Origin: an uncultured Syntrophobacteraceae bacterium | GTDB lineage: Bacteria; Desulfobacterota; Syntrophobacteria; Syntrophobacterales; Syntrophobacteraceae | Assembly: GCA_964407285.1 (NCBI GenBank) | Contig: CAYOVG010000003.1 | Span: 40 to 64,039 of the forward strand | DNA length: 64,000 bases | Direction: 5' to 3' | In this document: in pieces, positions 22,446-56,907 of the stretch | Numbering within the stretch: position 1 is the first letter of the stretch | Layout of the letters: every line of letters begins with the position of its first letter | The notes under the pieces: model-generated | Database searches by the model: none | Seen by the model: only the letters and a program-made list of their open reading frames with translations | What the model was told of the DNA's origin: nothing | Program-made: the position numbers and the translations under genes

Positions 22446-22455
22446 GCCGAAGAGT

Positions 22456-23838
22456 ATGTACAAGCGTTATCAGCACATCCATTTCGTAGGGATCGGGGGA
22501 ATCGGCATGAGCGGCATCGCCGAACTCCTTTTGAACCTCGGGTACCGCGTAAGTGGTTCCGACATGAGGGAGACGGAAACCACGCAGCGGCTGGCCCGGC
22601 TGGGTGCCCGGATATTTATCGGGCATCATGGCGACCACGTGCAGGGAGCGGATGTGGTGGTCCTTTCTTCGGCCATATCCGAGGACAATCCCGAGGCGGT
22701 GGCTGCTCGCGCCGGAGCAGGCAAGGCGCCGGTGATCCGGCGGGCGGAGATGCTTGCGGAGTTGATGCGCCTCAAGTATTCCGTCCTGGTGGCGGGGGCC
22801 CATGGAAAGACGACGACCACCTCCATGGTCGCAACGGTGCTGGCCCGCGGAGGGCTCGATCCCACGGTGGCCATCGGAGGCAAGCTCAACGCCTGGGGCA
22901 CCAACGCCAAGATGGGCCGTGGGGACTTCATGGTTGCGGAAGCCGACGAGAGCGACGGCACGTTTCTCCTGCTCTCCCCCACCATCGCGGTGGTCACCAA
23001 TATAGATCTGGAGCACCTCGACTTCTACAGGGACATGGAGCATATCCAGCAGACCTTCCTGCAGTTCATCAACAAGATACCATTCTACGGGCAGGCCATC
23101 CTTTGTCTCGAAGACGAAAATATCCAGTCGATCCTCCCCAAGGTCGGAAAGAGGTTCACCACGTACGGGTTTTCGTCCCAGGCGGACTTTCAGGCGCGCG
23201 ATGTCAGGGCGGACGGCTTTCATTCCATCTACCGCGCATGGTGCCGCGGAGAGGAACTCGGAGAGATCGAGGTTACGCTTCCGGGACGGCACAACGTACT
23301 CAATTCGCTCGCGGCCGTGGCCGTGGCGCGGGAGCTGGAGGTGGACTGGCCGTCGATTCGGGCGGGACTCAGGGATATGACCGGCGTGCAGCGCCGCTTC
23401 CAGGTCAAGGGCGAGGCGGGCGGCGTGCTGGTGCTGGACGACTACGGACATCACCCTACGGAGATCCGGGCGGTGCTGGAGACCTTTGCGGCGTGTTTTC
23501 CCAACCGCCGCCGCATCGTTGCGTTTCAGCCGCATCGGTATTCGCGGACCAAAGGGCTCATGGACCAGTTCGCACGCTGTTTCTATCAGTCGGACGCGCT
23601 TTTCATGACGGAGATCTATGCGGCCGGCGAGAAGCCGCTTTCGGGCATATCGGGCAAGGCCCTGGCGGACCGGATTACGGCTCACGGACACCGCGACCTG
23701 CGCTACTGTCCGACCCTCGATGAAATGCTCGAAGAGATGCTTGCCTTCGTCGCGCCGGGCGATGTGGTGTTGACGCTCGGAGCGGGCAGTATCTGGCAGA
23801 CGGGAGAAGCGCTTCTCCGAAGGCTGGAGGAGCGATGA
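22456..23838 (+). CDS. murC: UDP-N-acetylmuramate--L-alanine ligase
   Basis: Motifs: HFVGIGGIGMSGIAE, VAGAHGKTTTTSM, AEADESDG, DDYGHHPTE and QPHRYSRT. Confidence 0.9.
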   Translation: MYKRYQHIHFVGIGGIGMSGIAELLLNLGYRVSGSDMRETETTQRLARLGARIFIGHHGDHVQGADVVVLSSAISEDNPEAVAARAGAGKAPVIRRAEMLAELMRLKYSVLVAGAHGKTTTTSMVATVLARGGLDPTVAIGGKLNAWGTNAKMGRGDFMVAEADESDGTFLLLSPTIAVVTNIDLEHLDFYRDMEHIQQTFLQFINKIPFYGQAILCLEDENIQSILPKVGKRFTTYGFSSQADFQARDVRADGFHSIYRAWCRGEELGEIEVTLPGRHNVLNSLAAVAVARELEVDWPSIRAGLRDMTGVQRRFQVKGEAGGVLVLDDYGHHPTEIRAVLETFAACFPNRRRIVAFQPHRYSRTKGLMDQFARCFYQSDALFMTEIYAAGEKPLSGISGKALADRITAHGHRDLRYCPTLDEMLEEMLAFVAPGDVVLTLGAGSIWQTGEALLRRLEER

Positions 23839-24839
23839 TGAATAGCGAAGCGAAAGCCGGACGCCGCGTTTTTTCCATGCCTGACTGGGCGGATGTCGTT
23901 GCCGGTTCGGCGGATATTGACTGCAAGTGGTCGGAGTCTTTGTCGCGCCATACTTCTTTCCGGGTGGGAGGGCCGGTTTCCTGCATGGCCCGGCCCCGGA
24001 CGGAAGCGGCCTTTGCCTCCCTGGTGCGGCTGGCCATGAGGGAGCGGATTCCGTACGTGTTGCTGGGCGGCGGGAGCAACGTGCTGGCGCCCGATGACGC
24101 CTGGGATGTGCTGGTGGTGCAGCCTCACCTGGCTTGTGGAGAGATTCGCAGGTTCGGAGGCCGGGGAACGTGCCTGTATGTGGGGGCGGGCGTGAAGCTC
24201 GCAACGTGGCTTTCCTTCTGTCTGCGGCGCGGGTTGGGCGGCGCGGAGTGCCTGGCGGGAATTCCGGGCACGGTCGGAGGGGCGCTCTTCATGAATGCAG
24301 GCACGCCGGATGGTTGCATCGCGGATATCCTTGTGTGGGTGGATGTACTGGACGCTCGCGGGAGAAGATGCCGGATGGACATGTCCCAGTTGGCGCCCGG
24401 CTACAGGACGATGGGACTTTCGGATGACTGGGTCATCCTGGGGGGATGTTTTCAGATGCGTCCGGCGTCCGTGGAGTTTCTGAGAGCGCAGATGCGTGAG
24501 ACCATGCTCCGGCGCAAACACGTTCAGCCCCTGGGGGCGCCGTCGGCGGGGAGCGTGTTCAAAAACCCGCCCGGTGAGTATGCGGGGGCGCTGATAGACA
24601 GGCTCGACCTCAAGGGGTTTCGTATTGGGGATGCCGGGGTTTCGGAGAAACACGCCAACTGGATCGTGAATTTGGGACATGCGAGGGCGAGGGACATCCT
24701 TGCCGTGATGGGACATATAGAGAAACAGGTTTGGGAAGGCTTCGGCATTCGCCTGGAGCGCGAAATCAGGGTGCTGGGCAGTGAAAGCGAAAGAGAACCG
24801 CTATCGACACACGCGCAAGAGCTTCAAGCCCGGGTTTAA
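23835..24839 (+). CDS. murB: UDP-N-acetylenolpyruvoylglucosamine reductase
   Basis: Motifs: TSFRVGGP, LLGGGSNVL, GIPGTVGGALFMNAG, SAGSVFKNP and SEKHANWIVN. ATGA overlap with murC. Confidence 0.9.
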   Translation: MMNSEAKAGRRVFSMPDWADVVAGSADIDCKWSESLSRHTSFRVGGPVSCMARPRTEAAFASLVRLAMRERIPYVLLGGGSNVLAPDDAWDVLVVQPHLACGEIRRFGGRGTCLYVGAGVKLATWLSFCLRRGLGGAECLAGIPGTVGGALFMNAGTPDGCIADILVWVDVLDARGRRCRMDMSQLAPGYRTMGLSDDWVILGGCFQMRPASVEFLRAQMRETMLRRKHVQPLGAPSAGSVFKNPPGEYAGALIDRLDLKGFRIGDAGVSEKHANWIVNLGHARARDILAVMGHIEKQVWEGFGIRLEREIRVLGSESEREPLSTHAQELQARV

Positions 24840-25644
24840 GCTCCGCGGTTTGAAGCTGAAGCTGAGCATCCCGTGGCGGGGACTCAAGGCGACGGCCGCC
24901 TTTGTGGCCGCAATAGCCCTGGTGCTGGGGCTCAGCGCCGCGCTGGCCCACTCTTACTACGCCTTGGAAGACGCCCCGTGGCCGAGGGTGGAATCGATCG
25001 AGATAAAGGGGCTCAAGCGTGTGGACCGGCGCGAGGTGCTGAACGCCCTGGGGATTGCCAGGAACGCCAACGTCTTGACCCTTCGAATATCGCAACTGGC
25101 AGGGCGGGTGGAAGCCCTTTCTTGGGTGCGTTCGGCGGTGGTGAGGCTCGATTTCCCGTCGCGGATGATCGTTGAGGTTGTCGAGCGGGAACCGCTGGCC
25201 ATTGTGTACACGGATGCTTTCTACCTCATGGACGGCGAGGGGAAGCTCTTCCTGAAGGTCAATCCGGAGAGCCATGCGGGTTTGCTGCTGGTTACCGGGG
25301 TTGCGCGGCAGGAAATCCGGGAGGGGGGCGTTCTTTCGGAAGAACCTCTGGAGGCCGTGAAGGCGTTGCTCCTGGCCCTGGAGAAGTGCCAGAGCTGGTT
25401 GCCGTTGAGTCTTATTTCGCAGTGTCACTGGCAGAGGGAGGTCGGAGTCGTTCTCTATCCGAGCAGCAAGGTGATTCCCATTCAACTCGGAAAGAACGAT
25501 TTCGAACTGAAGCTGAGCCGGTTGCATAAGGTGATAGATGCTCTGATGAATCGCCAGTGGTGGGACCTGGTGACGCGCATCGATCTCGATTACAAGAGCA
25601 GAGCGTACATAAAGGGGAACTTCCCGATTCCCAAGGGGATATGA
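24781..25644 (+). CDS. ftsQ: Cell division protein FtsQ (POTRA domain)
   Basis: Bitopic protein: TM segment AAFVAAIALVLGLSAALA, then a POTRA-like IEIKGLKRVDRREVLNALGI ... VVERE. GTG start; the 59-nt overlap with murB suggests the true start may be later. Confidence 0.8.
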   Translation: MKAKENRYRHTRKSFKPGFKLRGLKLKLSIPWRGLKATAAFVAAIALVLGLSAALAHSYYALEDAPWPRVESIEIKGLKRVDRREVLNALGIARNANVLTLRISQLAGRVEALSWVRSAVVRLDFPSRMIVEVVEREPLAIVYTDAFYLMDGEGKLFLKVNPESHAGLLLVTGVARQEIREGGVLSEEPLEAVKALLLALEKCQSWLPLSLISQCHWQREVGVVLYPSSKVIPIQLGKNDFELKLSRLHKVIDALMNRQWWDLVTRIDLDYKSRAYIKGNFPIPKGI

Positions 25645-25702
25645 ATTTCGAGGTCTCATTCGACATCATTCAAGGAGGCGAGGGGGGCCAAGAGGGGGCG
25701 CG

Positions 25703-26938
25703 ATGGGAAGGCGAGAGGAACTGATTGTTGGGCTGGACCTGGGAACCACGAAGATTTGTGCGGTCGTGGGAGAAGTGACCCCGGAGGGGATCGATATCGT
25801 GGGGGTCGGTACCTACCCGTCCGTGGGCATGAGGGGCGGGGTGGTGGTCAATATAGACCAGACGGTCAATTCGATCCGAAAGGCCGTGGAAGAGGCCGAA
25901 CTCATGGCCGGATGCGAGATATCCTCGGTGTACGCCGGGATCGCCGGGACTCATATCCAGAGTTCCAACAGCCATGGGGTAATCGCCGTCAAAAGCCGCG
26001 AGGTGGGACAGCCCGACGTGGAGCGGGTGCTCGAGGCGGCGAAGGCGATTGCGCTGCCGGTGGACAGGCAGATCATTCATGCTCTCCCTCAGCAATACAT
26101 TGTGGATGATCAGGAACGGATTCAGGACCCTCTGGGGATGTCCGGAGTGCGGCTCGAAGCGAAGGTGCACATCGTCACGGGGGCCAGTTCCGCGGTTCAA
26201 AACATTCTGCGGTGTTGCGAGAAGGGCGGGTTGCACGTCCAGGAGGTGGTCCTGGAGTCGCTGGCTTCCGCGGAGTCGGTCCTCGACAGGGATGAAAAGC
26301 AGTTGGGGATAGCCCTGGTGGACATGGGGGGAGGCACGACGGACATAGCGGTTTTCATCGACAATGCAATCCGGGCCTCCTCCGTGGTGGGGCTGGGGGG
26401 AGCCCACATCACGTCGGATATTTCGGTAGGGCTGCGCACCTCGATGGAGGAAGCGGAGAAGATCAAAAAGAAGTACGGCTGCGCTCTCGTGGAGAAGACC
26501 AACCCGCAGGAAGTGATCGAAGTGGGTTCGGTCGGAGGGCAGAAGCCGCGTCAACTTGCACATTCGATTCTGGCGGAGATTATTGAAGCCCGTATGGAGG
26601 AGATGCTCAAAATCATCGAATGGGAGCTGGTCAGATCCGGATACATCGACTCGCTCCATGCGGGGGTCGTGCTCACCGGCGGGGTTTCTCTCCTCCCGGG
26701 GGTCAGGGAACTGGCGGAGAGCATATTCGATCTCCCGGTCAGAATCGGTTTTCCATATCATTTCGGCGGGCTCGGGGATGTAGTGAAAAATCCCATCTAT
26801 GCAACGGCGACGGGCCTGGTGTTGTACGGCAGGAAACACTCCCAGCAGGGCGCTACAATGGCTGTAGAGAGCCACGGCGGAGGAGGAATGAGGAACTTCG
26901 TGGAGACTATCAGACGCTGGTTCGGTGAGCTTTGGTAG
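25703..26938 (+). CDS. ftsA: Cell division protein FtsA
   Basis: Actin-fold motifs: VGLDLGTTKICAVVGE, VDMGGGTTDIAVF and VLTGGVSLLPG. Confidence 0.92.
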   Translation: MGRREELIVGLDLGTTKICAVVGEVTPEGIDIVGVGTYPSVGMRGGVVVNIDQTVNSIRKAVEEAELMAGCEISSVYAGIAGTHIQSSNSHGVIAVKSREVGQPDVERVLEAAKAIALPVDRQIIHALPQQYIVDDQERIQDPLGMSGVRLEAKVHIVTGASSAVQNILRCCEKGGLHVQEVVLESLASAESVLDRDEKQLGIALVDMGGGTTDIAVFIDNAIRASSVVGLGGAHITSDISVGLRTSMEEAEKIKKKYGCALVEKTNPQEVIEVGSVGGQKPRQLAHSILAEIIEARMEEMLKIIEWELVRSGYIDSLHAGVVLTGGVSLLPGVRELAESIFDLPVRIGFPYHFGGLGDVVKNPIYATATGLVLYGRKHSQQGATMAVESHGGGGMRNFVETIRRWFGELW

Positions 26939-27019
26939 TTAAGGCGCTCGACCAGTTTCAGTTTTGGAATGCTCTTGGCAGTATGGGATCATCTCTTGAG
27001 AGAGAAGAGGGGCGGAAAA

Positions 27020-28249
27020 ATGTTGAAAGCGGAACCGGGTGGGGCAAAAATCAAGGTATTGGGAATTGGTGGCGGGGGCGGCAATGCCATCAACAACATG
27101 ATCAGCAGTGGGTTGGATGGTGTTGAGTTCATCGCGGCCAATACGGATTTCCAGGCGCTGGATCAGAACCTGGCTCCCATCAAGATCCAGTTGGGCGTCA
27201 ATCTGACCCGTGGGTTGGGGGCCGGGGGCAACCCGGAGATGGGTTCGAAGGCCACCCAGGAGAACATCGACAGCGTTCGTGAAGTGGTGGAAGGAAGCGA
27301 CCTGGTCTTCATCGCGACGGGCCTGGGCGGCGGAACGGGCACGGGCGGCGCGCCGATTGCGGCGCAGGTGTGCAAGGAGGTCGGGGCGCTCACGGTAGCG
27401 GTGGTGACCAAGCCTTTCGCGTTCGAGGGGCGGGCGCGGCAGCGCCGGGCGGAGGAGGGGCTCAAGGCGCTCCAGAACGTGGTGGACACCCTTATCGCGA
27501 TCCCCAACAACCGGTTGGTGACCATGGCCGACAAGCGGGCGACGCTGCTCGAGATGCTCAAGCGGGCGGACGACGTGCTGCTCGATGCCGTGCGGGGTAT
27601 TTCGGATATCATCGTCAAGCCGGGCCTCATCAACCTCGACTTCACCGATGTGCGCTCCGCGATGAACGAACGGGGTCTGGCCCTTATGGGAACGGGAGTC
27701 GGCAAGGGCGAAGGCCGTGCGGCGCAGGCGGCGCAGCAGGCCATCTCCAGTCCGCTCCTGGAAGATATTTCCATTCACGGAGCGCGGGCGGCCCTGATCA
27801 ACATCTGTGCCGGGCACGACCTGACAATGCACGAGTTCGAGGAGGCCTCCTCGATCATTCAGAAGGAAGTGGACGAGGATGCGGAGATCTTCATCGGCAC
27901 CACCATCGACCCGCACCTGGAGGACGAACTCCGGGTCACCGTCATTGCCACGGGCATCGGCAAGATGGAAAAGCAGCCCCAGCGGTCGGAGAGCGCGGCG
28001 GTGGTTCGTCCCGGCAGGCGTTCGAGGACCGAGGCGATTGTGCCCGACGTGGTGAACGACGACTACATCCGCATCCCGACGATTTACCGCAATCGCTCCG
28101 TCAGAGGGGAGAAGGACGTAGCGGCGGGGGCCCAGGAGGAGCCTCAGCAGCCGGTGAAGAAAAGGACCTTCCTGAGCCGTATTGCCGGAATTTCCGGGGA
28201 GGACCAGGATCTGAACATCCCGACCTTCATCCGGCGCCAGGCCGATTGA
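27020..28249 (+). CDS. ftsZ: Cell division GTPase FtsZ
   Basis: Motifs: GIGGGGGNAINNM, the tubulin signature GLGGGTGTGGAP, NDRL-type (IPNNRL), and the C-terminal peptide DLNIPTFIRRQAD. Likely start is ATG 27020 (MLKAEPGGAKIKV). Confidence 0.95.
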   Translation: MLKAEPGGAKIKVLGIGGGGGNAINNMISSGLDGVEFIAANTDFQALDQNLAPIKIQLGVNLTRGLGAGGNPEMGSKATQENIDSVREVVEGSDLVFIATGLGGGTGTGGAPIAAQVCKEVGALTVAVVTKPFAFEGRARQRRAEEGLKALQNVVDTLIAIPNNRLVTMADKRATLLEMLKRADDVLLDAVRGISDIIVKPGLINLDFTDVRSAMNERGLALMGTGVGKGEGRAAQAAQQAISSPLLEDISIHGARAALINICAGHDLTMHEFEEASSIIQKEVDEDAEIFIGTTIDPHLEDELRVTVIATGIGKMEKQPQRSESAAVVRPGRRSRTEAIVPDVVNDDYIRIPTIYRNRSVRGEKDVAAGAQEEPQQPVKKRTFLSRIAGISGEDQDLNIPTFIRRQAD

Positions 28250-45614: not shown

Positions 45615-46036
45615 GTTCTGCTGCGCACGGCGTGCACAATCCCGGTAAACCGTGCCGATAATCGGATGCTGCCGGATCTCTCCAATTTTTCGACCGCGGC
45701 CGGCGCACATTGCCGGCCGCTCAGCGGTATCTTCATTTTCTCGTGATTCATGCTTATAATATCCGGATAATACCCAAGGACGTGAAAGCCGATGCCCCCA
45801 ATTTGCGAGGAGCCGTAGAGCGTAGCCTTTTCAATGCAGGAGGAGCGCGGATGCCCTGGAAGGAATGTCGTTGACTTGCATTGTGCGGAATGCGACATGG
45901 GATTGCTGTTCGTGGTCGAAGCGTCCGATTCGAAGACCGGTCGGACCCTGAGGGCATTTGCCCAAAATGCACCCGATGGCAGGGAGAGACCGGCGGTGCG
46001 GAGGGGTTCAATACCGAATATGGAGGACGAACGAAA

Positions 46037-47200
46037 ATGTCGGAACGAGTCGGAGTGCCCTGTCTGAAGAGTGGAGAGGCAAATTCAGGCCATCCCGAGG
46101 GGACGCCCAATCCGGCTGATAGCTCCATCGATAGCCTGGCTTTCTGTAAATTCGTAATCAATAGCGTGCCGATCGGGATCATTTCCATGGATTCCGACTT
46201 CAGGATTACCGAATTCAACCATTGGGCCGGGAAAGTGACGGGCTATACCCCGGAACAAGCGATAGGCCATAGGTGTTGTGACATTTTGCAGAGTGAAATG
46301 TGCGAAGGTTCCTGTCCTTTGAAAACAGTTCTGAACCAGGCAAAAGCGACTGTATCCGGCAGGACGACCATACGCAACAGGGAGGGAATGCGCGTCCCCG
46401 TTCAGTTCGACGCTGCTGCTCTCTTTGGCGCCGAAGGCAGGCTCATCGGAGGAGTCGAAGCCTTCATGGATATAACGAAACTGATTGCCCTGGAGCGGGA
46501 GAGAGCGGACTTCATCGCGATGCTCGCTCATGACATGAGGTCTTCATTAACGGGGATCCACGGACTCGGGCTCAGGCTGTTGAGAAAGCTCGACAACCTG
46601 GATAAGGGACAGGAGAGGCAGTACATAGAGATCATCACCAGGGAGGCCGCAAAGCTGGAGTCATTGATCGATGACTTTCTCGATTATTCCCGGATTGAAG
46701 CGGGCAGGCTCAAGCTCAATCTCAGAGCGACTTCCCTCGATAAAGAACTCGAAGAGATTTTTGACACATACAAGCTCAAGGCGGCCCAGAGAGGCATCGT
46801 GCTCGATCTGCAGATAGAAGATATTCTGCCGGTTGTAGAGGCTGATACCAACAGGCTGCGCAGGGTCTTTACGAATCTCTTGGATAATGCCGTCAAGTTT
46901 TCGAGAGAGGAAGGGGTTGTCACGATCACCGCCCAGGAGAAGGATCGGGAGGTCGTGGTGATGATAACCGATGAGGGCATCGGAATAGATCCCGAGGATC
47001 TCCCCCATATTTTCGACGTCTTCCATAGGGGAAAGACGACGGGCGGGGTAGAGGGACACGGACTGGGACTGGCTACTGTCAAGGCCATTGTGGAAGGGCA
47101 TGGCGGGCGTATCGTGGTCACCAGTCAGCCCAATAAGGGCTCGACGTTTACCATATTTCTTCCCAAACGGGAAGAGGGGCCGCCCCGCTTCGATTCCTGA
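46037..47200 (+). CDS. Cytoplasmic PAS-domain sensor histidine kinase (orphan; no response regulator adjacent)
   Basis: GGAGGA lies 9 nt upstream of ATG 46037. It has a PAS (PIGIISMDSDFRITEFNHWAGKVTGYTPEQAIG) with a Cys cluster, the H-box AMLAHDMRSSLTG, the N-box NLLDNAVKF, and the G-boxes DEGIGI / GHGLGLATV. Confidence 0.85.
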   Translation: MSERVGVPCLKSGEANSGHPEGTPNPADSSIDSLAFCKFVINSVPIGIISMDSDFRITEFNHWAGKVTGYTPEQAIGHRCCDILQSEMCEGSCPLKTVLNQAKATVSGRTTIRNREGMRVPVQFDAAALFGAEGRLIGGVEAFMDITKLIALERERADFIAMLAHDMRSSLTGIHGLGLRLLRKLDNLDKGQERQYIEIITREAAKLESLIDDFLDYSRIEAGRLKLNLRATSLDKELEEIFDTYKLKAAQRGIVLDLQIEDILPVVEADTNRLRRVFTNLLDNAVKFSREEGVVTITAQEKDREVVVMITDEGIGIDPEDLPHIFDVFHRGKTTGGVEGHGLGLATVKAIVEGHGGRIVVTSQPNKGSTFTIFLPKREEGPPRFDS

Positions 47201-47266: not shown

Positions 47267-47539
47267 CTATTCCAAATCCGGAAGCTCCTCCCGAGGAATG
47301 AGGAGCCTTATCGTGCGAGGCTGATTCGGCACTCTTGAAATAAAGCCCTTTTGCTCGAGCTGCAGCACCATGCTGTGAACAGATGGAGGCGTGGTCTTGA
47401 AATATCTCTGCATGTCCGCTTCCGCCGGTGGAATACCGTTCAATTTGGTGTAGTAGTGGATGAACGCCAGGTATTGGCCCTGTTTGCGCGTGTATGGAGA
47501 TCTTTGCTTTCGGTTCGCGTCGTGAATATCCGTCTTCAT
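47267..47539 (-). CDS. Small winged-helix DNA-binding protein resembling the LexA N-terminal domain; last gene of the RAMP operon
   Basis: 90 aa. YTRKQGQYLAFIHYYTKLNGIPPAEADMQRYFKTTPPSVHSMVLQLEQKGFISR parallels the LexA DNA-binding domain pattern (LT.RQ..vL.FI..y....G.pPt..EIa..lg..S.s.V..HL.aLe.KGyI.R). It starts 15 nt after the Cas6-like stop. Confidence 0.65.
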   Translation of the reverse strand: MKTDIHDANRKQRSPYTRKQGQYLAFIHYYTKLNGIPPAEADMQRYFKTTPPSVHSMVLQLEQKGFISRVPNQPRTIRLLIPREELPDLE

Positions 47540-47554
47540 AATCAGCCCTTATAA

Positions 47555-48619
47555 TCAGCTCAGCGAAAACGTTCCGCATCCGAGGTGGGTGTACCTCCCG
47601 ATGTGGAGGATGGATGCGAGTTCCAGCCACGGGATGATCTGCGGAGCAATGGGGGCGAAGACCCCTTTGCCCGCCCATCGGCCCGGAGTGCCGGTCTGAT
47701 TGGCCTCCATGTCCTTGAAGAGCAACGGGGTCCGGACGGCCAGGTCCATGGCCTCCCGGAGGGACGCTCTGCCCTCCTCGTCGAGAATGTTCCACAGGGC
47801 GTCGGCCGCCTTTTTGCCTCGCGCAAGGAAGACCAGGCGCCTCTCCACGGCTTCCAGGATGGCTTCCAGCGAGAAATCGGGGATTTCCCGGCCATCATAT
47901 CCTCGCTGCCTATGCAGAGGCGGGCCGGAATCCGCGTCCGCCTGTTCTCCCGAAATACCGGGTTGGGCCTCGAATTCAAAGGACGTGAGCCACGACAGCC
48001 GCTGCGGAGGGGCCGCCGAACCGGCCTCGAACGCCAACCCCCGCGCCCACTGCGATGTATCGGCCCGGTAACCCAGGTCCAACCGGCCGTCGCTCACCAC
48101 CGGCTCCCAGCATGGCCCTCGCGCCGCATAGACGGCATGAACGTCGAATCGGCCCCATATCCCGCCCGAGCGGCTCCACCGGGAATCCGTCGTGAAGCTC
48201 GCTTCCTCCATGGCGGGCAGCAGGGTTTCGAGGAAGAATCCATGGTCCGCCGCGTCTCCCATCACCTTGAGTTCCCAGAAGACCAGTTCTCCGAACCCGT
48301 AGGTCCGCTTTCCGGGATAGGGAAAGAGCACGACGTCGGCGGGCCACGATACGTCGGGAAATTCCCGCTTCATGCGCGGCGATCCCTTTTTTCCCTTCTT
48401 CGAATGATCGGGATTGGGGTCATCGAAATACGCGTCCCAGGGGGCGAGGGCCTTCTTCCAGCGTCCGGACTCCCTGGACGGGAGGCGGTCCGCGATGATC
48501 GAGCCGAGGACCCTCGACAGTTCGACCGAGAAGTTCTCCGGCAAGAACACGTAGGCGCCGTTTATCCTCCACACGATGAGGTAGCGGATGAGCCTAATCT
48601 TCCTGAATGAGGCGTGCAT
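47555..48619 (-). CDS. Cas6-like RAMP protein (resembles the Cas6 family formerly called DUF2276)
   Basis: 354 aa. The C-terminal glycine-rich loop LELASILHIGRYTHLGCGTFSLS is the Cas6/RAMP signature (HiGk.tsfGlG). The N-terminal half has FGELVFWELKVMGDAADHGFFLETLLPAMEEA and GGIWGRFDVHAV, matching the first ferredoxin-like fold of that family. It overlaps the upstream gene by 26 nt. Confidence 0.7.
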   Translation of the reverse strand: MHASFRKIRLIRYLIVWRINGAYVFLPENFSVELSRVLGSIIADRLPSRESGRWKKALAPWDAYFDDPNPDHSKKGKKGSPRMKREFPDVSWPADVVLFPYPGKRTYGFGELVFWELKVMGDAADHGFFLETLLPAMEEASFTTDSRWSRSGGIWGRFDVHAVYAARGPCWEPVVSDGRLDLGYRADTSQWARGLAFEAGSAAPPQRLSWLTSFEFEAQPGISGEQADADSGPPLHRQRGYDGREIPDFSLEAILEAVERRLVFLARGKKAADALWNILDEEGRASLREAMDLAVRTPLLFKDMEANQTGTPGRWAGKGVFAPIAPQIIPWLELASILHIGRYTHLGCGTFSLS

Positions 48620-49478
48620 AATCGAGAAGCTCGTGAAATAGTTTGATCCGGTTCTTGGGCCATTCCCGCACCTTCCAGGCCGTCAGCATGTCCCTGGTCC
48701 GCTGCTCGAGCCTTCCCAGAAAGCGGCCCCAGTAGAACTGGGTCTGCTTCTTATCCTTCAGGTTGAGCAGGTCGAACAGCTCCTGCTGCTCGTCGGGATG
48801 GAGCAGAGCCCGGAAGATCTCCGCCGTCTCCAGGAGACCGAGGAAGTCGGACACCTCGAAGCTGAGCATTCCCTTCTGATCGCGGGTACGGGGGTCCAGC
48901 AACTGGTACGGACTCGAAAAAAAACGTACGTGCATGCTCCCCATCGGGATGTACAGGTCCCGATGGACGGCCAGGGTGAGCACATCGCCCATGCACGTTC
49001 TCGTGCCGGCCCCCATGGTCGGGAAGATCTGCAAAATCCCCCGCAACTCCAGCCCGTAGTAGACGATGAGGTCCTGCAGCCACACTCTCACTTCCCGGCG
49101 GTGCATCATGACGAGAAAATGGTTGGCGTCGTGAATATAGACACCCTGGAGCCGCCCGCCCCGGTCCCCGCCGCCCCACTGGAGCACCTCCTCGGGCAAC
49201 TGGGTGACGAACCCCCAGATGAGCGCCGCGTTGCGGGAGATATGGGAGAGATTGGCCGTCCGCTGAAGAATCTGCCCGCACTCCCTGCAGTACAGCTCCC
49301 CCTCCCCGGTGCGGGGATAGATCCAGCACCGCGCGCACGGCCCCAGGGTAGCGGAATGGGGCGCTCCGATGTCGCCGGCGGCGGCCGGAAAATCGGGGTT
49401 TTCCGACAGGCGCCTCATTGTGGCCAGGAGTTCCGTACCCGTCCGGCAGCGGCGTAGCCAATCAAATCTGCTGAGCAT
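48594..49478 (-). CDS. Zinc-ribbon protein of unknown function, middle gene of the RAMP operon
   Basis: 294 aa. CARCWIYPRTGEGELYCRECG (CxxC-x12-CxxC) sits at aa 48-68. The rest is mixed alpha/beta-looking with no motif I recognise. It is translationally coupled on both sides (17-nt and 26-nt overlaps). Confidence 0.65.
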   Translation of the reverse strand: MLSRFDWLRRCRTGTELLATMRRLSENPDFPAAAGDIGAPHSATLGPCARCWIYPRTGEGELYCRECGQILQRTANLSHISRNAALIWGFVTQLPEEVLQWGGGDRGGRLQGVYIHDANHFLVMMHRREVRVWLQDLIVYYGLELRGILQIFPTMGAGTRTCMGDVLTLAVHRDLYIPMGSMHVRFFSSPYQLLDPRTRDQKGMLSFEVSDFLGLLETAEIFRALLHPDEQQELFDLLNLKDKKQTQFYWGRFLGRLEQRTRDMLTAWKVREWPKNRIKLFHELLDYARLIQED

Positions 49479-52400
49479 CCAACGCCTTCCGCAGTTCCTG
49501 GTAGTGTTGTATCACTTTTGGATCGATCCATTCCGCCGGATTCAGGGGCATCCGCCCCCGGGCGTCGTCGGACTTCCCGTCCCCGTTGCCGCCCGCATAC
49601 CGGCTCTCCCAGTCCGTGAGAAAACTTTCCGGAAGCAGGCTCAGCCGCAGGCTCCCGAACCCGAGGTAGCGACCCTTGCCCATCTTGTGCGCCAGCTCCG
49701 GTTCCAGCACCGTACACCACAAGAGCCTCTGCAGTTCGTCCTTCTCGAGGTTCCAGAACCGGATCGAGAATCGGCACCGGGAGCCGGGTAGGATCGCCTT
49801 GACGTAATCGGCTTTGGGGGTATCCGGGTTGAAGCCGTCCAGTTTCTCCACGCAAGGGGCAAGCGGGGCGTGCGGGAAGAGCCTCCACTTCCCGGCGATG
49901 CGCAGCATCTCGGCGGGTTGTTTCGAAGCCTCCTTCCACCGGCCGTCGATGTAGCGCCACGCCCCGTAGGGGTACGGCACTTTGAACCATGCGGCGTCAA
50001 CCTCCTCGAACGGGGCGAAATCGAAGGAAATCCTTCCCATGATCGCCTGGTTCGGACCGTTTCCCACCCAGCCGAACAGGCTGTCCGCGGGGGTGAGCCG
50101 GCCGATGTCCGTGCTGGGTTTGCCGGAGTCGGTTGCGATGGTGTAGATGTGCCGGATCATTCCCTTGATGCTCTTGGCGGGCAGAGCGTAGAGCCTGGAG
50201 GGACCCCGCAGGGCCGCTTCCGGCGGAGCCATGGCGAAGTGGTCCCATCCGTTGATGCCCCCTGCCGACGCATCATCGAGAATGTGCGCCTGCGACGGCT
50301 CTCCGCTTGCCTTGACGCTGACCAGCGTCAGGACTCGGCCCTCGACCCGCAGCAACCCGCAGTAGCCCCCGAAAGCCTTGTGGGATATGAAACCCTGTCC
50401 GGTCCTCGGCGGATTTCGCGCGCCTCTCTTGCCTTCCGGAGCGATGGGGGTCCGGAGAAACGCATCCCGGGCGGCCTCCCCCTCGACGCTGAAACCGTTC
50501 CATATGCCGTCGCGCGTGTGGACCGGGCTTGCGAAAATCCTCCTGCCGACCGCATCCGCGTCCGCGGGCGCGCAGGTCAACCACCGAATTGAGTCGATCC
50601 GGCTCTTGACCCAGCCGAAGCCGCATGTCTTTTCTCCGCCGAGAGGGATGTCCCCCTTGCGGAAGTCGTCGAGCAGGTGCGCCAGGATGGAAAACGCTTC
50701 CATGTCCTTTTCGCCCAGGTCCTGCATGTCGAGCCGCAGGTTGAACGAGAGGTCCTTGCCGAAGGCGAAGAGGTAGTCCGCTTTGGCTTCCTCGATGGGA
50801 GCGCCCGTCGCGGGGTCCATTCTCACCCCGTCCATGGCGCAGGCCGATTGAGGCGGGATCGTGGAACCTGATAGATATGCGTCGGAGAAGAAAACCATCC
50901 CCTGCCGTCCCTGCTCGCCGAAGAGACGGTCCAAAACGAACGCCGTTTTCGACGATTCCCCCCACAGGGTCTTGAGCAGTTGGGACGCGCGCTTCCTGAA
51001 CGCGCCTTTAATGGTGCTTCCCGGTATGTACACCTCCCACTTTCCCCGCCCCTCCCTGGAGGGCGCCCAGGAAAGCATCCTCATGAATACGGTGTCGAAA
51101 GGCTTGCCGTACTTCCTGGAAATCTCGCGGTTGGCTACCCCGCCGGCGCGGAAGTCGGTGTTGTACGGCTGGGACAGCTCCTCGCGGGTATGGTCGCGAT
51201 ATCCCGAAAGGAGCGCTATGATGTTCTTGTCGTTCACGATGCTTTTGTTCAGGTTCCTGCTGTTGAGCATGTGGCGGTACTGCACCCGCCGGTGGGATTC
51301 GATGAATTCCCGCCAGGTCGAGGAACGTACGCCCTCGGGTGTCAAGTCCGGGTTGAGCCATTGCCGCTCCTGCATCTTTCCCTTGAGGAGCATGTTCTTG
51401 ATGCGCAGGTGCTCTTCCCGGATGGCGATCTCCTCATCGATCCAGCTATCGCTTCGGATCAGCTTGATCTGCCTGTCCACCTGCTGGTAGAGGTTCGGAA
51501 GGACCCTCGCGCACTCGCGCGACAGAAGGTCCGTGAAGGCGGATTCGTCCTGGACGGAGCCCGCCAGCCGGTCCGCCACGTCCTTTTCGAACCCCATCGG
51601 ACCGGCGACCTTCGCCCAGGTTTCCCTGTCGAACTGCTTGCCCTTCTTTCGCTCGTGCACCACGACGTCGAGCACGCGTTTGGCCATGTTGGCTTTCCCG
51701 CCGAGAGCCTCCTTGACGGCCGCCTCGACGGCCTCCTTGTTCGGAAACGGGCGGTCCGTGAGCGGCTTTACCTGGTCCAGCACCTTCTGGGACAGAGGGA
51801 ACTTGCCCTTCCCGAGTTTCCCCACGGCGGCGGACGGGAGCATCCAGGACACCTGTTCCATGCTGGACTGCTCCATCAGCCAGGCGGCCAGTACTCTCGG
51901 AAGGAATTCGGCCAGCTTCTTCTTCCAGTTGTCCGGGCTGAGGATCGGTCCCCCTATGGTGGATTCCAGCCGCTTGCGGATCGGCTGCGGGATGCTCCTC
52001 ATGGCTTCCAGGAGTTGACGGCCTTCGATGGCGGCGAAGGCCGGTTCGTTCGGGTCGATTTTTCCCCACGGCCACCCCACGAGGACGGGGTTTTCCAGGT
52101 TGAAGGAGAGGTCGATGGCGAGGTGGTTCGCGCGAGGCGAGACGGAAGGCGCCGTATCCCGAGGCTTGAAGGGGAGTTCGATTTCCAGGCGGCAACGTCC
52201 CAATCCCTTGCTCTTCCCGGCCCCGAACCAGAAACGGCCCTCCTTCAGTTCCTGCAATGCAAAGTAGAGCCTGGCCTCGTTTTCGTCCTTCTTGAGGAGA
52301 GGATCGCTCACCGTCATGGAAAAATCGAAGACCGAATTCCGGAAAAGGGTTTCCATCTTGTAGTTCGCGTTGGCTTCCGCCGCCCAGCGGTCCTCGTTGA

Positions 52401-52719
52401 GCTTGATGCCCATGCGGATGTCGAAGAGGTGGTCCCGCGAGTAGCTCTTCTCCTCGAGGCTGCACTGGACCTTCGCGACCAGCCCTTCCGGCATGGGGGA
52501 ACCGTAGAGCCGCAGCCACAACTGGTTGAGCAATCCGATGTTCTTTCCGGTTCGCGACTTGCCGATGAACGCGTCCATGAGGGATTCGGCGGTCCCCCCT
52601 ATTTCTCCGGCGAGGGACACGAGGCGCTGCGTTCCGTCTCCGTCTCTCGTGAAAAGGGTCTTCCGCGCATTTCCCCGGTAGATCGGGGATTCGGCCAGGA
52701 GCTTACCTTTGAGAATCAT
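49462..52719 (-). CDS. Fused multi-RAMP protein: three Cas7-like modules with a large insertion (gRAMP/Cas7-11-like architecture, 1085 aa)
   Basis: AAGGAGG lies 6 nt upstream of ATG 52719. Module 1 (aa 1-185): ESPIYRGNARKTLFTRDGDG, IRMGIKLNEDRWAAEANANYKMETLF, G-loop FGAGKSKGLGRCRL. Module 2 is split: AIDLSFNLENPVLVG (aa ~200-216), then WEVYIPGSTIKGAFRKR (561-577), LDRLFGEQG, GVRMDPATGAP, G-loop IPLGGEKTCGFGWV. Module 3 (aa ~785-1030): RVLTLVSVKASGE, YALPAKSIKGMIRH, ADSLFGWVG, GRISFDFA, RFSIRFWNLEKDELQRLLW, G-loop HKMGKGRYLGFGSLRL. Confidence 0.8.
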   Translation of the reverse strand: MILKGKLLAESPIYRGNARKTLFTRDGDGTQRLVSLAGEIGGTAESLMDAFIGKSRTGKNIGLLNQLWLRLYGSPMPEGLVAKVQCSLEEKSYSRDHLFDIRMGIKLNEDRWAAEANANYKMETLFRNSVFDFSMTVSDPLLKKDENEARLYFALQELKEGRFWFGAGKSKGLGRCRLEIELPFKPRDTAPSVSPRANHLAIDLSFNLENPVLVGWPWGKIDPNEPAFAAIEGRQLLEAMRSIPQPIRKRLESTIGGPILSPDNWKKKLAEFLPRVLAAWLMEQSSMEQVSWMLPSAAVGKLGKGKFPLSQKVLDQVKPLTDRPFPNKEAVEAAVKEALGGKANMAKRVLDVVVHERKKGKQFDRETWAKVAGPMGFEKDVADRLAGSVQDESAFTDLLSRECARVLPNLYQQVDRQIKLIRSDSWIDEEIAIREEHLRIKNMLLKGKMQERQWLNPDLTPEGVRSSTWREFIESHRRVQYRHMLNSRNLNKSIVNDKNIIALLSGYRDHTREELSQPYNTDFRAGGVANREISRKYGKPFDTVFMRMLSWAPSREGRGKWEVYIPGSTIKGAFRKRASQLLKTLWGESSKTAFVLDRLFGEQGRQGMVFFSDAYLSGSTIPPQSACAMDGVRMDPATGAPIEEAKADYLFAFGKDLSFNLRLDMQDLGEKDMEAFSILAHLLDDFRKGDIPLGGEKTCGFGWVKSRIDSIRWLTCAPADADAVGRRIFASPVHTRDGIWNGFSVEGEAARDAFLRTPIAPEGKRGARNPPRTGQGFISHKAFGGYCGLLRVEGRVLTLVSVKASGEPSQAHILDDASAGGINGWDHFAMAPPEAALRGPSRLYALPAKSIKGMIRHIYTIATDSGKPSTDIGRLTPADSLFGWVGNGPNQAIMGRISFDFAPFEEVDAAWFKVPYPYGAWRYIDGRWKEASKQPAEMLRIAGKWRLFPHAPLAPCVEKLDGFNPDTPKADYVKAILPGSRCRFSIRFWNLEKDELQRLLWCTVLEPELAHKMGKGRYLGFGSLRLSLLPESFLTDWESRYAGGNGDGKSDDARGRMPLNPAEWIDPKVIQHYQELRKALDAQQI

Positions 52720-52927
52720 TCACGCCTCCTTGTCTCTTGCTCCGCGGGAAATCGTGTTCACTGGTCATCCATTCATCCTTTCTCGCCTCGACCGGGATAT
52801 CGAGTAGTGGATAGTGGATCGCCGGCTTCATAAATACGGCCGCCATGCCCGCCATAGGGTTAAATATGTATGTTTATCACTATCGTATCGTGGCTGCAAG
52901 TTGCTTCGCTCAATTATAATCCGATAA

Positions 52928-54115
52928 TCAGGCTTCCAACTCCTGGTTTCCGGCCTCCGGCCTCCGTCTCATGGCGAGACTCAGTAACCCGGCCGCGAAC
53001 GGAAGCCAGACCAGCATCCGGATGGCGAATTCGATGCCGAACCGCTCCGCCGCCATGCCGACCAATCCCACTCCGAGTCCGCCGATCCCTATGCCGAATC
53101 CGAGCATCAGTCCGGCGGCCATGGCGGCGTTTTCCGCGATTACTTCCTGGGCGGCCACGATGGTTACCGAAAACGACGCCAGGAGCGCGGCTCCGGCGAG
53201 GGCGAGCAGGATGTAGCTCGGGAGCCCGTCCGTTTGGAGGAACAGGTAGAAAAGGGGAGTGGCCGCCATCAGCGACCCCGCTATGACCGTCTTCCTCCCG
53301 AGCAGGTCCGACAGGTGCCCTCCGACCAGCCCTCCGATCGCTCCCGAGAAGAGCATCAGGAACACCAGCCTGCTCCCGGTGAGAAGCGAAATGTCCCTGT
53401 GCTGGAGGTATAGCGGCAGGAATGCGACCATGCTGAAGAACGCGAGGGACCGGAAGGCGACGACCGCCACGACCTTCGAGAGTTCGAACCGGACAGGGCG
53501 AAGCGCGGGCCAGAGGGGCGGGGGGGACGCTTTTTTCCGTGAAGGGGTCTCGGGGACCGTGAACCGGAGAACGACGGAAACTACCACGCCGGGCAGAACG
53601 AATAAAGGGGTCCACTCGAGCCCCCATGTCTCGATGAACGGGACAGCCAGGAGCGGCGTAAGCGCCCATCCGACATTTCCGGAAGTGATGAATACGGCCT
53701 GGAAGAAGCCTTTGCGGTTGCCCCCGAGGGATGAAATCATCGCGGAAGCCTGGGGATGGAAGGCGGCGGTTCCGAATCCGGCCAGGGTCACGAGCGCCAC
53801 GAGCAGCGGATAGCTCTTCAGAACTCCGATGAGGCTGAGCAGGACGGCCATCCAGAGTGTTCCGGCATACACCAGCCAGCGCTGGTCTTTCTGGTCCACC
53901 AGGTACCCGGAAACCGGCTGAAAGAGCGAGGACGTGACCGTAAAGGCGGAAACGAGGAACGCGCCCTTGCTGATTCCCAGTCCCGCCGCGACCATGAACG
54001 GCAGGAGCGTTTGAATGTAGTTCATGTACCAGTCGTTCAAGCAGTGGGCGACGCATATGGAGGCTATGCTCACTTTCCGGGAAACCTGGGATGCTTCTGC
54101 AACTTCTACGCTCAT
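52928..54115 (-). CDS. MFS transporter
   Basis: 395 aa with about 12 hydrophobic helices and MFS-like loop motifs (GYLVDQKDQRW after TM2; GHLSDLLGRK in the second half). Confidence 0.85.
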   Translation of the reverse strand: MSVEVAEASQVSRKVSIASICVAHCLNDWYMNYIQTLLPFMVAAGLGISKGAFLVSAFTVTSSLFQPVSGYLVDQKDQRWLVYAGTLWMAVLLSLIGVLKSYPLLVALVTLAGFGTAAFHPQASAMISSLGGNRKGFFQAVFITSGNVGWALTPLLAVPFIETWGLEWTPLFVLPGVVVSVVLRFTVPETPSRKKASPPPLWPALRPVRFELSKVVAVVAFRSLAFFSMVAFLPLYLQHRDISLLTGSRLVFLMLFSGAIGGLVGGHLSDLLGRKTVIAGSLMAATPLFYLFLQTDGLPSYILLALAGAALLASFSVTIVAAQEVIAENAAMAAGLMLGFGIGIGGLGVGLVGMAAERFGIEFAIRMLVWLPFAAGLLSLAMRRRPEAGNQELEA

Positions 54116-55338: not shown

Positions 55339-55482
55339 AAGACATGCGGGAGATGTGGCGCCGGATGGTCGAATGGCCTGTACCTTCAGGTTTTGTGGCG
55401 AAGGGACTCCGGGAGCGCGCCGGGACGACGCGTGGACATCCGCTCCGGACTTACCCTTTGGGAATGCAAGGGAGCACCAGTC

Positions 55483-56907
55483 ATGGGCAGACCGACTCTT
55501 ACCGATGTCAATCCGTTCTATCTCGGCAATGTTATGGATCTGGCCAGGGAGCACGAAGTCGTCACGAGCGACGACATATACAGCGCCCAGGGGATGAAGC
55601 TCGTCGCCAGGGGGAGAAGAGTTGACGAAAGCCTGTACGAGCGGCTGATCAACTTCAGTTTGCGCACTCCGCTGGAATCCTGCCTGGCTGTGGGCGACGG
55701 CGTGAGGGTCGAGACGCTCATGGAGGAAGCCGAAGCATTGCTGGAAGAGGTCGGACCGCTGTCGGCGCTCATGCGGACCACGAATTCCACCCGCAAAGCC
55801 ATGTCCGTGCTCAAAGAGACCCGCCTGGACCAGGTCGGCGCTCTGCTCATCACCATGGAAAAGGGTATGGGAACTCTGCCCCACAGCGTCCTCGTCTCTC
55901 TTTTCTGCCTGGCCGTCGGGATCGGGTTGAACCTCGGCGAGGATAACCTCCGCGTGCTCGTCATGGCCGGAATGCTGCACGACGCAGGGGAGCTTTACAT
56001 CGACCGGGAGTATCTGAAACCGAACCGCCGGTTGCAGCCCCGGGAATGGAAGCACGTCGCCGTGCATCCCCACATCGGCGAACTCGTCATCCGTGAAGTG
56101 GCGGGGTATCCGGAGCGCGTGGCCGCGGCGGTCGGCGAGCACCATGAAAGGCCGAACGGATTCGGCTATCCGCGCCGGATAACCGGTGACAGGATGAGCG
56201 TGCCGGGGAAGATACTGATGGCCGGTGAGGCCCTGGGCAGTCTCTTCACGAGGGACCGCTGGTCTGTGCGGCGCGTGAGCCTGGCCGTCAGCTTCATTCC
56301 CGGAGAATACCCGCCGGAGATAGTCTCTCTTATCGCGAGCATTCCTGTATCCGACGAATCCGCAGATTCGGGGAAATCCGGAGATTCCGTGGATTCGGGG
56401 GAATTGGATGCTCCCGGTTCCGGACGCAAGCCTCGGGGGGCGTCACCGGGCGGGGCGGCGCATGCCGATGCGCCGCTGGACGGCGACCAAGTTGCCTGGA
56501 TGAAACGCATCGACAATACGATAATCGGAGCGCTCGACGGGGTGGAGCAAGCGCTGGCGCGGGAAAAGGTCCCCTCCGCCCGGAGCGCTTTCCTTCAGCA
56601 GGTGCGGAAGCGGCTGCTCGTTCTTCAGGCCGCCATGCGGGACACCGTGTTCTCCCCTCATGAGGGGCTGTATGCGGATACCGACTGTGAAACGGAAACC
56701 ATCTCCCTGGAGATCCGGACGGTCATCCATGAAATAGAGTGGAGGCTGCGCGAAGTCTCGCGCCACATGGCGCTGAACTCCATGGCCGGAAAGGGGGATA
56801 CCGGCGGTTCCGACGATTCCGGCCACTACTTCGACTGGATGGCCGACTGCCTGGATCGAACTCCCGCAAACGCCCCCCGGCGCGCCGGATGCCGCCATGC
56901 GGCGTAG
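55483..56907 (+). CDS. HD-GYP domain protein (probable c-di-GMP phosphodiesterase) with a Ser/Asp/Gly-rich C-terminal extension
   Basis: Likely start is ATG 55483 (MGRPTLTD). Motifs: HD motif AGMLHDAGELY and HHERPNGFGYPRR (HHExxDGxGYP). Confidence 0.85.
   Translation: MGRPTLTDVNPFYLGNVMDLAREHEVVTSDDIYSAQGMKLVARGRRVDESLYERLINFSLRTPLESCLAVGDGVRVETLMEEAEALLEEVGPLSALMRTTNSTRKAMSVLKETRLDQVGALLITMEKGMGTLPHSVLVSLFCLAVGIGLNLGEDNLRVLVMAGMLHDAGELYIDREYLKPNRRLQPREWKHVAVHPHIGELVIREVAGYPERVAAAVGEHHERPNGFGYPRRITGDRMSVPGKILMAGEALGSLFTRDRWSVRRVSLAVSFIPGEYPPEIVSLIASIPVSDESADSGKSGDSVDSGELDAPGSGRKPRGASPGGAAHADAPLDGDQVAWMKRIDNTIIGALDGVEQALAREKVPSARSAFLQQVRKRLLVLQAAMRDTVFSPHEGLYADTDCETETISLEIRTVIHEIEWRLREVSRHMALNSMAGKGDTGGSDDSGHYFDWMADCLDRTPANAPRRAGCRHAA

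Follow-up and report, generated by a model that had tools for sequence, protein, structure and literature searches.

The window, that is, the whole 64,000-nucleotide stretch of DNA that was analysed, very probably carries a complete subtype III-I module, cas7-11i – cas10i – cas6i, which lies in the core chromosome, is followed by a lineage-specific wHTH gene of the LexA type and would be guided by crRNAs supplied in trans. The membership of the three large proteins in the III-I families is established by scores far above the cut-offs of the corresponding NCBIfam models (NF049957, NF049958 and NF049959); these profile searches, which had been proposed in the preliminary description of this DNA, identify them as Cas7-11i, Cas10i and Cas6i. 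The combination of Cas7-11i, a shrunken Cas10 and Cas6 is the definition of subtype III-I given in November 2025 (Makarova et al. 2025, PMC12669027), with which the gene and domain content of the window agrees. The architecture, at first regarded as unassigned, thus belongs to a named subtype. The locus is a textbook copy of III-I together with one unrelated small regulator gene and is as such already known rather than new; automatic annotation at NCBI would give each of the three proteins its name, and the locus adds little as one more example of the subtype. The subtype itself is represented in the literature by neither an experimental paper nor a solved structure.

Organization of the operon and its three Cas proteins

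The gene geometry is exactly as initially described, with four open reading frames on the minus strand: cas7-11i (49462-52719, 1085 aa), cas10i (48594-49478, 294 aa), which overlaps cas7-11i by 17 nt, cas6i (47555-48619, 354 aa), which overlaps cas10i by 26 nt, and, after a gap of 15 nt, a 90-aa wHTH gene (47267-47539). Upstream of the operon, on the same strand, an intergenic region or 5′ UTR of 208 nt (52720-52927) stands out by its lower GC content (0.49 vs 0.62 in the operon), and an AAGGAGG ribosome-binding site (52725-52731) is located 5 nt before the ATG of cas7-11i, both as previously noted. This region has no Rfam match and is not conserved relative to other III-I loci. A TTGGAA element (52939-52934) spaced by 15 nt from a TATAAT element (52918-52913) was read by eye and might possibly serve as a promoter; a consensus promoter scan that required a spacer of 16-18 nt found none in the upstream region, and a scan for sigma-70 promoters and terminators returned nothing exceeding shuffled expectation. 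The flanking genes, a convergent PAS/HisKA kinase (45881-47200, plus strand) and an MFS transporter (52928-54115, minus strand), are those recognized earlier, and elsewhere the window consists of core chromosomal genes such as the dcw cluster and LpxC.

The effector aligns from end to end with the Cas_III-I_gRAMP model NF049957 (1774 bits, cut-off 800; aa 1-1085 on model positions 1-1076 of 1076). Its earlier interpretation as a triple-RAMP fusion holds, with Pfam PF03787 found in three stretches and PADLOC Csm3/Cas7_IIId matches at aa 91-177, 555-714 and 874-1049. With approximate boundaries, and all on the minus strand, Cas7 domain 1 covers aa 1-190 (nt 52150-52719), a helical insert and putative Cas11 aa ~190-530 (nt 51130-52152), Cas7 domain 2 aa ~530-720 (nt 50560-51132) and Cas7 domain 3 aa ~780-1085 (nt 49462-50382). 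The insert of ~340 aa between Cas7 domains 1 and 2 is conserved and has no significant Pfam or PDB sequence match; its designation as Cas11 is taken from one source, PMC12669027. Three aspartates, D26, D542 and D826, each located upstream of a RAMP glycine-rich motif, are conserved in 100%, 100% and 97% of 78 sequences, respectively, and are the candidate catalytic residues of Cas7-11i.

The second gene had been described as encoding a zinc-ribbon accessory of unknown fold in an operon that lacks cas10. Both statements have to be revised, as the product of this gene is an extremely diverged, shortened Cas10. It matches NF049958 (Cas10_III-i) with 414 bits at a cut-off of 175, and its AF2 model (pLDDT 86.7) has a Cas10 fold: the best 30 Foldseek matches in the PDB are all Cas10 (Csm1/Cmr2) or Csm/Cmr-complex entries (best E 1.7e-4, prob 1.0). 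The generic Cas10 models in Pfam and PADLOC do not match it. The protein has a zinc ribbon, whose CxxC...CxxC cysteines (C48, C51, C64 and C67) are invariant in the family alignment (A3), and a single palm-like alpha/beta domain, and it ends in a helical domain. There is neither an HD domain nor a conserved GGDD motif, the family consensus at the hairpin in the same alignment being HDxNH, and 294 aa is less than the length needed for HD, two Palm domains and D4.

The third gene encodes the III-I Cas6, a predicted pre-crRNA endoribonuclease with canonical Cas6 features. It scores 275 bits with NF049959 (CRISPR_3_Cas6i, cut-off 160), and its C-terminus has a weak match to Pfam PF10040. The previous assignment as Cas6-like is borne out by structure, since the best 25 Foldseek PDB matches of the AF2 model (pLDDT 84.3) are all Cas6, with a best E of 3.5e-8. 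In the family alignment (A4), H126 is invariant, as is the glycine-rich loop HIGRYTHLGCGTF at the C-terminus.

Relatives of the locus and the downstream wHTH gene

Homologues in the protein database number 472 for Cas7-11i, 307 for Cas10i and 413 for Cas6i, and the relatives in Desulforhabdus amnigena and Desulfonema magnum already bear Cas7-11i and Cas10i names given by NCBI. In all, relatives were found in about 190 species. Synteny is well established: the order cas7-11i > cas10i > cas6i recurs in about 95% of 163 related loci, mostly with overlapping junctions, and these loci are distributed over several phyla and lie in unrelated chromosomal neighbourhoods. Hundreds of homologues keep 45-75% identity, many invariant residues and overlapping gene junctions across phyla, and such conservation indicates purifying selection on the trio. 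The related loci L002/L085, L147, L025 and L116 are visibly decayed.

No accessory gene recurs beside the trio. Clustering of 994 neighbour ORFs returned the trio only, with the next family present in seven loci; no adaptation gene is recurrent beside the 163 loci, and a PADLOC search covering 118 ORFs next to the trio in the loci with the best flanks listed 25 of 53 families, none of them a Cas family, which leaves room for rare single occurrences. No relative was found on IMG/VR viral contigs or PLSDB plasmids.

The proposal that the four genes form a conserved unit stands for three of them: the trio is syntenic, and the wHTH gene is missing from 163 of 163 related loci by tblastn, so that a role as a conserved fourth component was rejected. 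Its sole other occurrence is on contig L084 of the same organism, and its GC3 is 0.64 vs 0.79-0.82 for the trio. The wHTH assignment itself was correct (PF01726 LexA_DNA_bind at 1.4e-9), and further matches are to the LexA PDB entry 3k2z at 1.6e-7 and to phrog_3502 at 3e-10. Identification as a LexA repressor was considered and rejected, as the protein comprises the DNA-binding domain alone and has no S24 peptidase domain; TIGR00498 reaches 40 bits, below its cut-off of 111, and is covered at positions 3-70 of 203. The 90-aa protein is a stand-alone LexA-DBD-like wHTH, not a LexA, and a lineage-specific neighbour that does not belong to the conserved module of III-I. Co-transcription with the trio is probable, and the protein possibly acts as a local transcription regulator.

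Arrays, guides and the likely mode of action

The window and the 163 related loci were searched for CRISPR arrays using TRF, a repeat search, an exact-k-mer finder and a sensitive search for two copies of 22 nt with no more than 3 mismatches; in synthetic controls the array finder recovers 100% of arrays with at least three intact repeats. The absence of an array from the 64 kb, as originally claimed, was reproduced by TRF, the repeat search, the array finder and Rfam, including its CRISPR-DR families; the window takes up nearly all of a 64.65-kb MAG contig, to which this result applies. Likewise, none of the 163 III-I loci has an array in its flanks, which were followed up to 10 kb out and amount to about 1.46 Mb in total; at least 5 kb is available on both sides in 33 loci, and at least 1 kb upstream in 117 and downstream in 120. 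All candidate arrays in the window and the related loci turned out to be REP-like hairpins, low-complexity tandem repeats, coding repeats or N runs, and the apparent arrays in the complete D. magnum chromosome (L038) are spacer-less tandem repeats of 14 and 56 nt. It had been anticipated that homologues of the quartet might already belong to a named subtype with adjacent arrays. The first half holds for the trio and the second does not, and since the arrays are missing throughout, adjacency to an array cannot tell III-I members from non-members.

Nor do the flanks of the trio share a non-coding element that could represent a guide or leader: all-vs-all blastn of 400-500-nt flanks and 14-mers compared over 3-kb flanks reveal synteny among close relatives and nothing else, and Rfam gives no match near the trio that could mark an alternative guide. 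Among the 52 other ORFs of the window, PADLOC and Pfam (25 of 42 Pfam families listed) yield no Cas family, in line with the claimed lack of an adaptation module, and no CHAT or TPR protein. With neither an array nor an adaptation module nearby, the suggestion that the source of the guide is remote is upheld.

Of the mechanisms considered for the III-I locus, RNA cleavage guided by trans-supplied crRNAs is the most likely. A CRISPR array at another place in the genome would be transcribed into repeat-containing pre-crRNA, which Cas6i would cleave; the crRNA would then be held along the three fused Cas7 domains of Cas7-11i, and a complementary target RNA would be cut by the effector via D26, D542 and D826. 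Cas10i, which has lost its HD and cyclase parts, is predicted to be a non-enzymatic, structural remnant of the large subunit bound to Cas7-11i, in which case cyclic-oligoadenylate signalling would not occur. The RNA guidance assumed here is an extrapolation from homology, because no crRNA, repeat or array is linkable to any III-I locus. The AF3 model of III-I in PMC12669027 was built with a crRNA borrowed from III-E or III-D, which fits the lack of a cognate array in cis, and the same paper proposes recruitment of crRNA in trans for III-G, another array-less subtype.

For such a trans-acting system, an array-less cassette that has its own Cas6 and moves between phyla is somewhat odd. The trio could instead have been exapted for a CRISPR-independent function, in which Cas6i would process a non-CRISPR RNA of cellular or mobile-element origin and Cas7-11i would use this RNA as a guide or ligand in regulation or defence. 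The consistent absence of arrays despite the dedicated Cas6, the lack of recurrent adaptation genes and the unrelated chromosomal contexts in several phyla all speak for exaptation. However, the flanks of the trio have in common neither a non-coding element nor k-mers that could encode another guide, no Rfam match is found, Cas6i keeps the canonical features of its family, and type III-B, C, E, F and G loci, which are often devoid of cis arrays, are believed to use crRNAs in trans (PMC12669027); on balance, exaptation is unlikely. A bolder version, rated slightly less probable still, would make III-I a 'CRISPR-Cas system without CRISPR', a mobile three-gene cassette with a guide or ligand other than crRNA, which in the present lineage recruited a LexA-type wHTH. 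If true, Cas6i might, for instance, derive the guide or ligand from a transcript of the host or of a mobile element.

The remaining explanations carry far less weight than crRNA-guided cleavage in trans. Reductive evolution, which is invoked by PMC12669027, and the few decayed relatives would be compatible with a defunct locus, a decaying leftover of a type III system after loss of the array, the cas10 domains and the adaptation genes. This is very improbable in view of the three intact window ORFs, which are full-length relative to the family models, and of the sequence identity, invariant residues and gene junctions retained across phyla. Even less probable, and already refuted by the profile scores and by PMC12669027, is the main reading of the preliminary description, an unclassified minimal relative or variant of the III-E effector gRAMP/Cas7-11e. 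The fused Cas7 architecture is indeed similar, and the last Cas7 domain resembles Cas7-11e (7zol, E 1e-10, aa 968-1027); but the III-E model NF041225 aligns with aa 967-1026 alone and reaches 60 bits vs a cut-off of 700, compared with 1774 for the III-I model, Cas10i and Cas6i (absent from III-E) are present while no TPR-CHAT gene is among the families listed for the window, and III-I has already been named and argued to derive independently from III-D (PMC12669027). Finally, arrays often break metagenome assemblies and about 10 related contigs end less than 500 nt upstream of cas7-11i, yet the loss of an adjacent array at a contig break is scarcely conceivable given array-less flanks of 47 and 11 kb in the window, the many related loci with long array-less flanks and the complete D. 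magnum chromosome, which is also array-less near the trio.

It is the cognate RNA of III-I that would decide whether the subtype is an ordinary user of crRNAs in trans or something more derived. At 1085 aa vs about 1600 aa for Cas7-11e, Cas7-11i is a compact Cas7-11-like effector with predicted RNA-targeting activity, and the cognate RNA is needed before it can serve as a small programmable RNA-cleaving tool.

Comparison with known type III systems

Among the reduced type III systems, III-G of the Sulfolobales shares with III-I an inactive cyclase. In contrast with III-I, to which it is unrelated in sequence, III-G has a multi-subunit Cas7, Csx26, an active HD domain and a predicted DNA target, and it does not have a dedicated Cas6 fused-effector architecture.

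The likeness to III-E is closer, and the earlier remark that the effector resembles Cas7-11 of III-E while being shorter (1085 aa vs about 1300-1900 aa) is accurate. Both subtypes feature a one-chain Cas7 fusion with an insert that is Cas11-like in III-E and putatively so in III-I, RNA cleavage by Cas7 aspartates is predicted for both, and III-E loci, like those of III-I, are often array-less. III-E differs in having four Cas7 domains with a big insertion, in processing its own crRNA and in lacking Cas10 and Cas6; its partners, the TPR-CHAT protease Csx29 and Csx30/31/RpoE, are not among the families listed for the window. The two fusions are considered to have independent origins from different III-D variants (PMC12669027).

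For III-I, descent from III-D is likely. The best matches of the window effector outside III-I are III-D Cas7 proteins (PADLOC Cas7_IIId at 1e-25, TIGR03986 at 4e-26, and 8s9t_D/E), and multi-Cas7 fusions exist within III-D, e.g. Cas7-2x and the TIGR03986 proteins (PDB 8s9t). Whereas III-D systems combine Cas5 and a Cas10 of full size with several Cas7 proteins encoded separately, in the window a single chain accounts for all but Cas10i and Cas6i.

The closest counterpart is the III-I prototype of Desulfonema magnum (Cas7-11i WP_207677910 and Cas10i WP_207677911; PMC12669027), the host of the window, probably a Syntrophobacteraceae-like bacterium of the Thermodesulfobacteriota, falling within the Thermodesulfobacteriota/Chloroflexota range of the subtype. 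The identities of Cas7-11i, Cas10i and Cas6i are 59%, 47% and 41%, respectively, with the D. magnum locus and 73%, 71% and 56% with Desulforhabdus-like proteins. Window and prototype agree in gene content and order, in the three fused Cas7 domains with a helical insert and an aspartate in each Cas7 domain, and in the shrunken, cyclase-less Cas10 with its zinc ribbon; the window locus is set apart by the downstream 90-aa LexA-type wHTH and by its chromosomal neighbourhood, and is otherwise the same.

Identity and layout of the type III-I cassette

The RAMP operon in the window is a known, already curated CRISPR-Cas system of subtype III-I. A profile search with NCBIfam release 20 was decisive for the identity of three proteins and establishes this membership: the 1085-aa protein matches NF049957 ('type III-I gRAMP effector Cas7-11i') end-to-end with 1774 bits (cut-off 800), the 294-aa protein NF049958 ('Cas10i') with 414 bits (cut-off 175), and the 354-aa protein NF049959 ('Cas6 (type III-I)') with 275 bits (cut-off 160). 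Pfam alone yields only 'RAMPs' for the large protein, leaves the 294-aa protein unmatched and places the Cas6 match of the 354-aa protein below threshold; this weak yield accounts for the orphan reading in the preliminary description. Its reading of the structure from raw sequence was largely accurate, while its claim of novelty is superseded, since the subtype was already named, first by Makarova et al. (Nat Microbiol 2025, PMC12669027), and curated in NCBIfam. The window Cas7-11i sequence is itself deposited at NCBI, as part of a contig of 64,650 bp, so that the window represents nearly the whole MAG contig; its closest named relative is Cas7-11i of Desulforhabdus amnigena (73% identity).

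An ORF listing reproduces exactly the coordinates first proposed for four minus-strand genes: cas7-11i (49462-52719), cas10i (48594-49478, overlapping by 17 nt), cas6i (47555-48619, overlapping by 26 nt) and, after a 15-nt gap, the 90-aa wHTH gene (47267-47539). The 208-nt upstream spacer (52720-52927; GC 0.49 vs 0.62 in the operon) is closed by AAGGAGG, 5 nt ahead of the cas7-11i ATG, and the operon is flanked by a convergent PAS/HisKA kinase gene and an MFS transporter gene. A candidate near-consensus promoter, TTGGAA-15 nt-TATAAT (52913-52939, minus strand), lies ~195 nt upstream of cas7-11i and spans the MFS stop codon; it was missed by a promoter scan because the scan demands a 16-18 nt spacer.

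Among the 52 other window ORFs, PADLOC and Pfam recognise transporters and kinases as well as LpxC and a dcw cell-division cluster; no Cas family appears in PADLOC or among the 25 of 42 Pfam families listed. The dcw-type cell-wall/division cluster occupies 14671-28249 (PBP transpeptidase, three Mur ligases, FtsW, FtsA, FtsZ), and further housekeeping genes, LpxC among them, are found in other parts of the window, so that the III-I cassette resides in the core chromosome, in no obvious island. PADLOC matches to mad3 (7e-32), mad8 (2e-12) and AriA (3e-10), one ORF each, probably reflect generic domains of ATPase, kinase or methylase type rather than defence systems.

Folds, conserved residues and the wHTH gene

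Structural models establish the folds of the two smaller proteins. The top 30 PDB matches of a Cas10i AF2 model built from 43 homologues (pLDDT 86.7) are all Cas10/Csm1/Cmr2 chains (best E 1.7e-4, prob 1.0); together with the profile match, they identify the 294-aa protein as the Cas10 that had been reported absent. Four cysteines (CxxC...CxxC; C48, C51, C64, C67) are invariant in the Cas10i family alignment, which contains no conserved GGDD. The top 25 structural matches of the Cas6i AF2 model (pLDDT 84.3) are all Cas6 endoribonucleases (best E 3.5e-8); H126 is invariant in the family, and the Cas6 glycine-rich loop HIGRxTHxGCGTF is kept.

The III-I effector has been described as three fused Cas7 domains plus a Cas11 domain, with aspartates conserved in every Cas7 domain (PMC12669027). 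In the window protein D26, D542 and D826, each upstream of a RAMP glycine-rich motif, are 97-100% conserved (n=78 Cas7-11i sequences), and sequence search gives no Cas11 signal in the insert at aa ~190-530.

The fourth gene encodes a winged helix of the LexA N-terminal type that lacks the S24 peptidase domain (PF01726, 1.4e-9; LexA, PDB 3k2z, 1.6e-7; phrog_3502, 3e-10), and its phage relatives carry repressor annotation. It was found in 0 of 163 related loci, is seen beyond the window on just one further contig, from the same organism (L084), and differs from the trio in GC3 (0.64 vs 0.79-0.82, with 0.79 for the upstream MFS gene and 0.45-0.88 for window genes overall), an offset that fits a different history. 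The wHTH gene is therefore a lineage-specific neighbour and no component of the III-I system, and the proposed four-gene unit reduces to three; plausibly it is co-transcribed with the trio, and plausibly it encodes a regulator.

Arrays, synteny and neighbours across the subtype

No CRISPR-like array was found anywhere in the 64-kb window by TRF (minimum score 30), a repeat search (spacing up to 120), our own array finder or Rfam including the CRISPR-DR families. Rfam's only match is the window's single tRNA gene (7387-7470, plus strand; RF00005, 56.8 bits), overlapped by a spurious long opposite-strand ORF (7152-7646). A 27-nt tandem repeat (56349-56404; 2.1 copies, 79% match) within a 504-aa ORF (55393-56907) probably encodes an acidic/serine-rich protein repeat.

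The family survey covered 163 loci: 80 from species-representative genomes (drawn from 190 species with a relative), 3 Desulforhabdus-like and 80 metagenomic (from 230 relatives). Across ~1.46 Mb of flanks, up to 10 kb per locus, with 5 kb or more to either side in 33 of them, no array lies near the trio in any locus (e.g. L003, L035, L044, L063, L067), as judged by an array finder that is sensitive according to synthetic controls, and no adaptation gene or other conserved neighbour recurs. The 'no array, no cas1/2' of the preliminary description thus holds, as a trait of the whole subtype and not a peculiarity of the window. The trio lacks an array in every surveyed locus despite its own Cas6. 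The array remarks in PMC12669027 concern III-G only and leave III-I arrays unmentioned; III-E and III-D crRNAs were borrowed for its III-I models.

The only apparent arrays, in Desulfonema magnum (L038, NZ_CP061800), proved to be tandem repeats without spacers. These long repeats upstream of cas7-11i (56-531 and 5912-6641; a 14-nt unit present ~25 times and a 56-nt unit present in 12 near-perfect copies) pass for an array in simple finders, and additional repeats and hairpins separate cas7-11i, cas10i and cas6i (13237-13318, 14602-14745). No conserved non-coding element flanking the trio was found across loci. A 16-nt motif, GACTTTGATGTACAAT, occurs in the trio flank of one Anaerolineae sub-clade (L005, L011, L012, L015, L016, L017, L029, L091, L100, L107, L111, L113), ~30-100 nt upstream of cas7-11i in L005 and L011. 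The window lacks this motif, which may serve as an operator or promoter element.

Synteny is established by tblastn: trio order is constant, and the overlapping junctions are usually the same, in essentially all loci on long-enough contigs. Decayed or rearranged loci are few: cas6i is cut to ~28 codons in L002/L085 (~14098-14181) and missing from L147 (8105-8207), and cas10i and cas6i give way to small unrelated ORFs in L025 (4521-5811, including an HNH-like protein) and L116 (13231-14015, a DUF4160-like pair). Clustering of 994 neighbour ORFs revealed no recurrent neighbour, the next family occurring in 7 loci only. Subtype III-I is known from more than 160 genomes, chiefly of Thermodesulfobacteriota and Chloroflexota (PMC12669027); our hosts comprise these two phyla, KSB1, Gemmatimonadota, Poribacteria, Calditrichaceae, Cytophagia and Rhodocyclaceae. 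Neighbourhoods are mutually unrelated (nif genes surround the trio in Desulforhabdus-like loci, for example), and no trio relatives were found on viral contigs (IMG/VR) or plasmids (PLSDB).

Proposed mechanism and relation to type III-E

In the most likely mechanism, drawn from homology and PMC12669027, Cas6i would mature crRNAs from arrays elsewhere, supplied in trans, and Cas7-11i would carry the crRNA and cut complementary RNA at its three Cas7 active sites. Cas10i would be a non-enzymatic remnant of the large subunit, so that no cOA signalling would be expected; no conserved accessory effector accompanies the trio. The remaining interest of III-I lies in the guide source for the subtype.

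That the trio has instead been exapted for a CRISPR-independent role is improbable. A defunct remnant is unlikely because III-I is strongly conserved, and the long flanks exclude that an array was lost during assembly. The reading as an unclassified III-E variant is refuted, the III-E model NF041225 giving the window effector only 60 bits (cut-off 700). As described in PMC12669027, the III-I effector resembles III-E Cas7-11 yet differs from it in descent, having arisen independently from a III-D variant.
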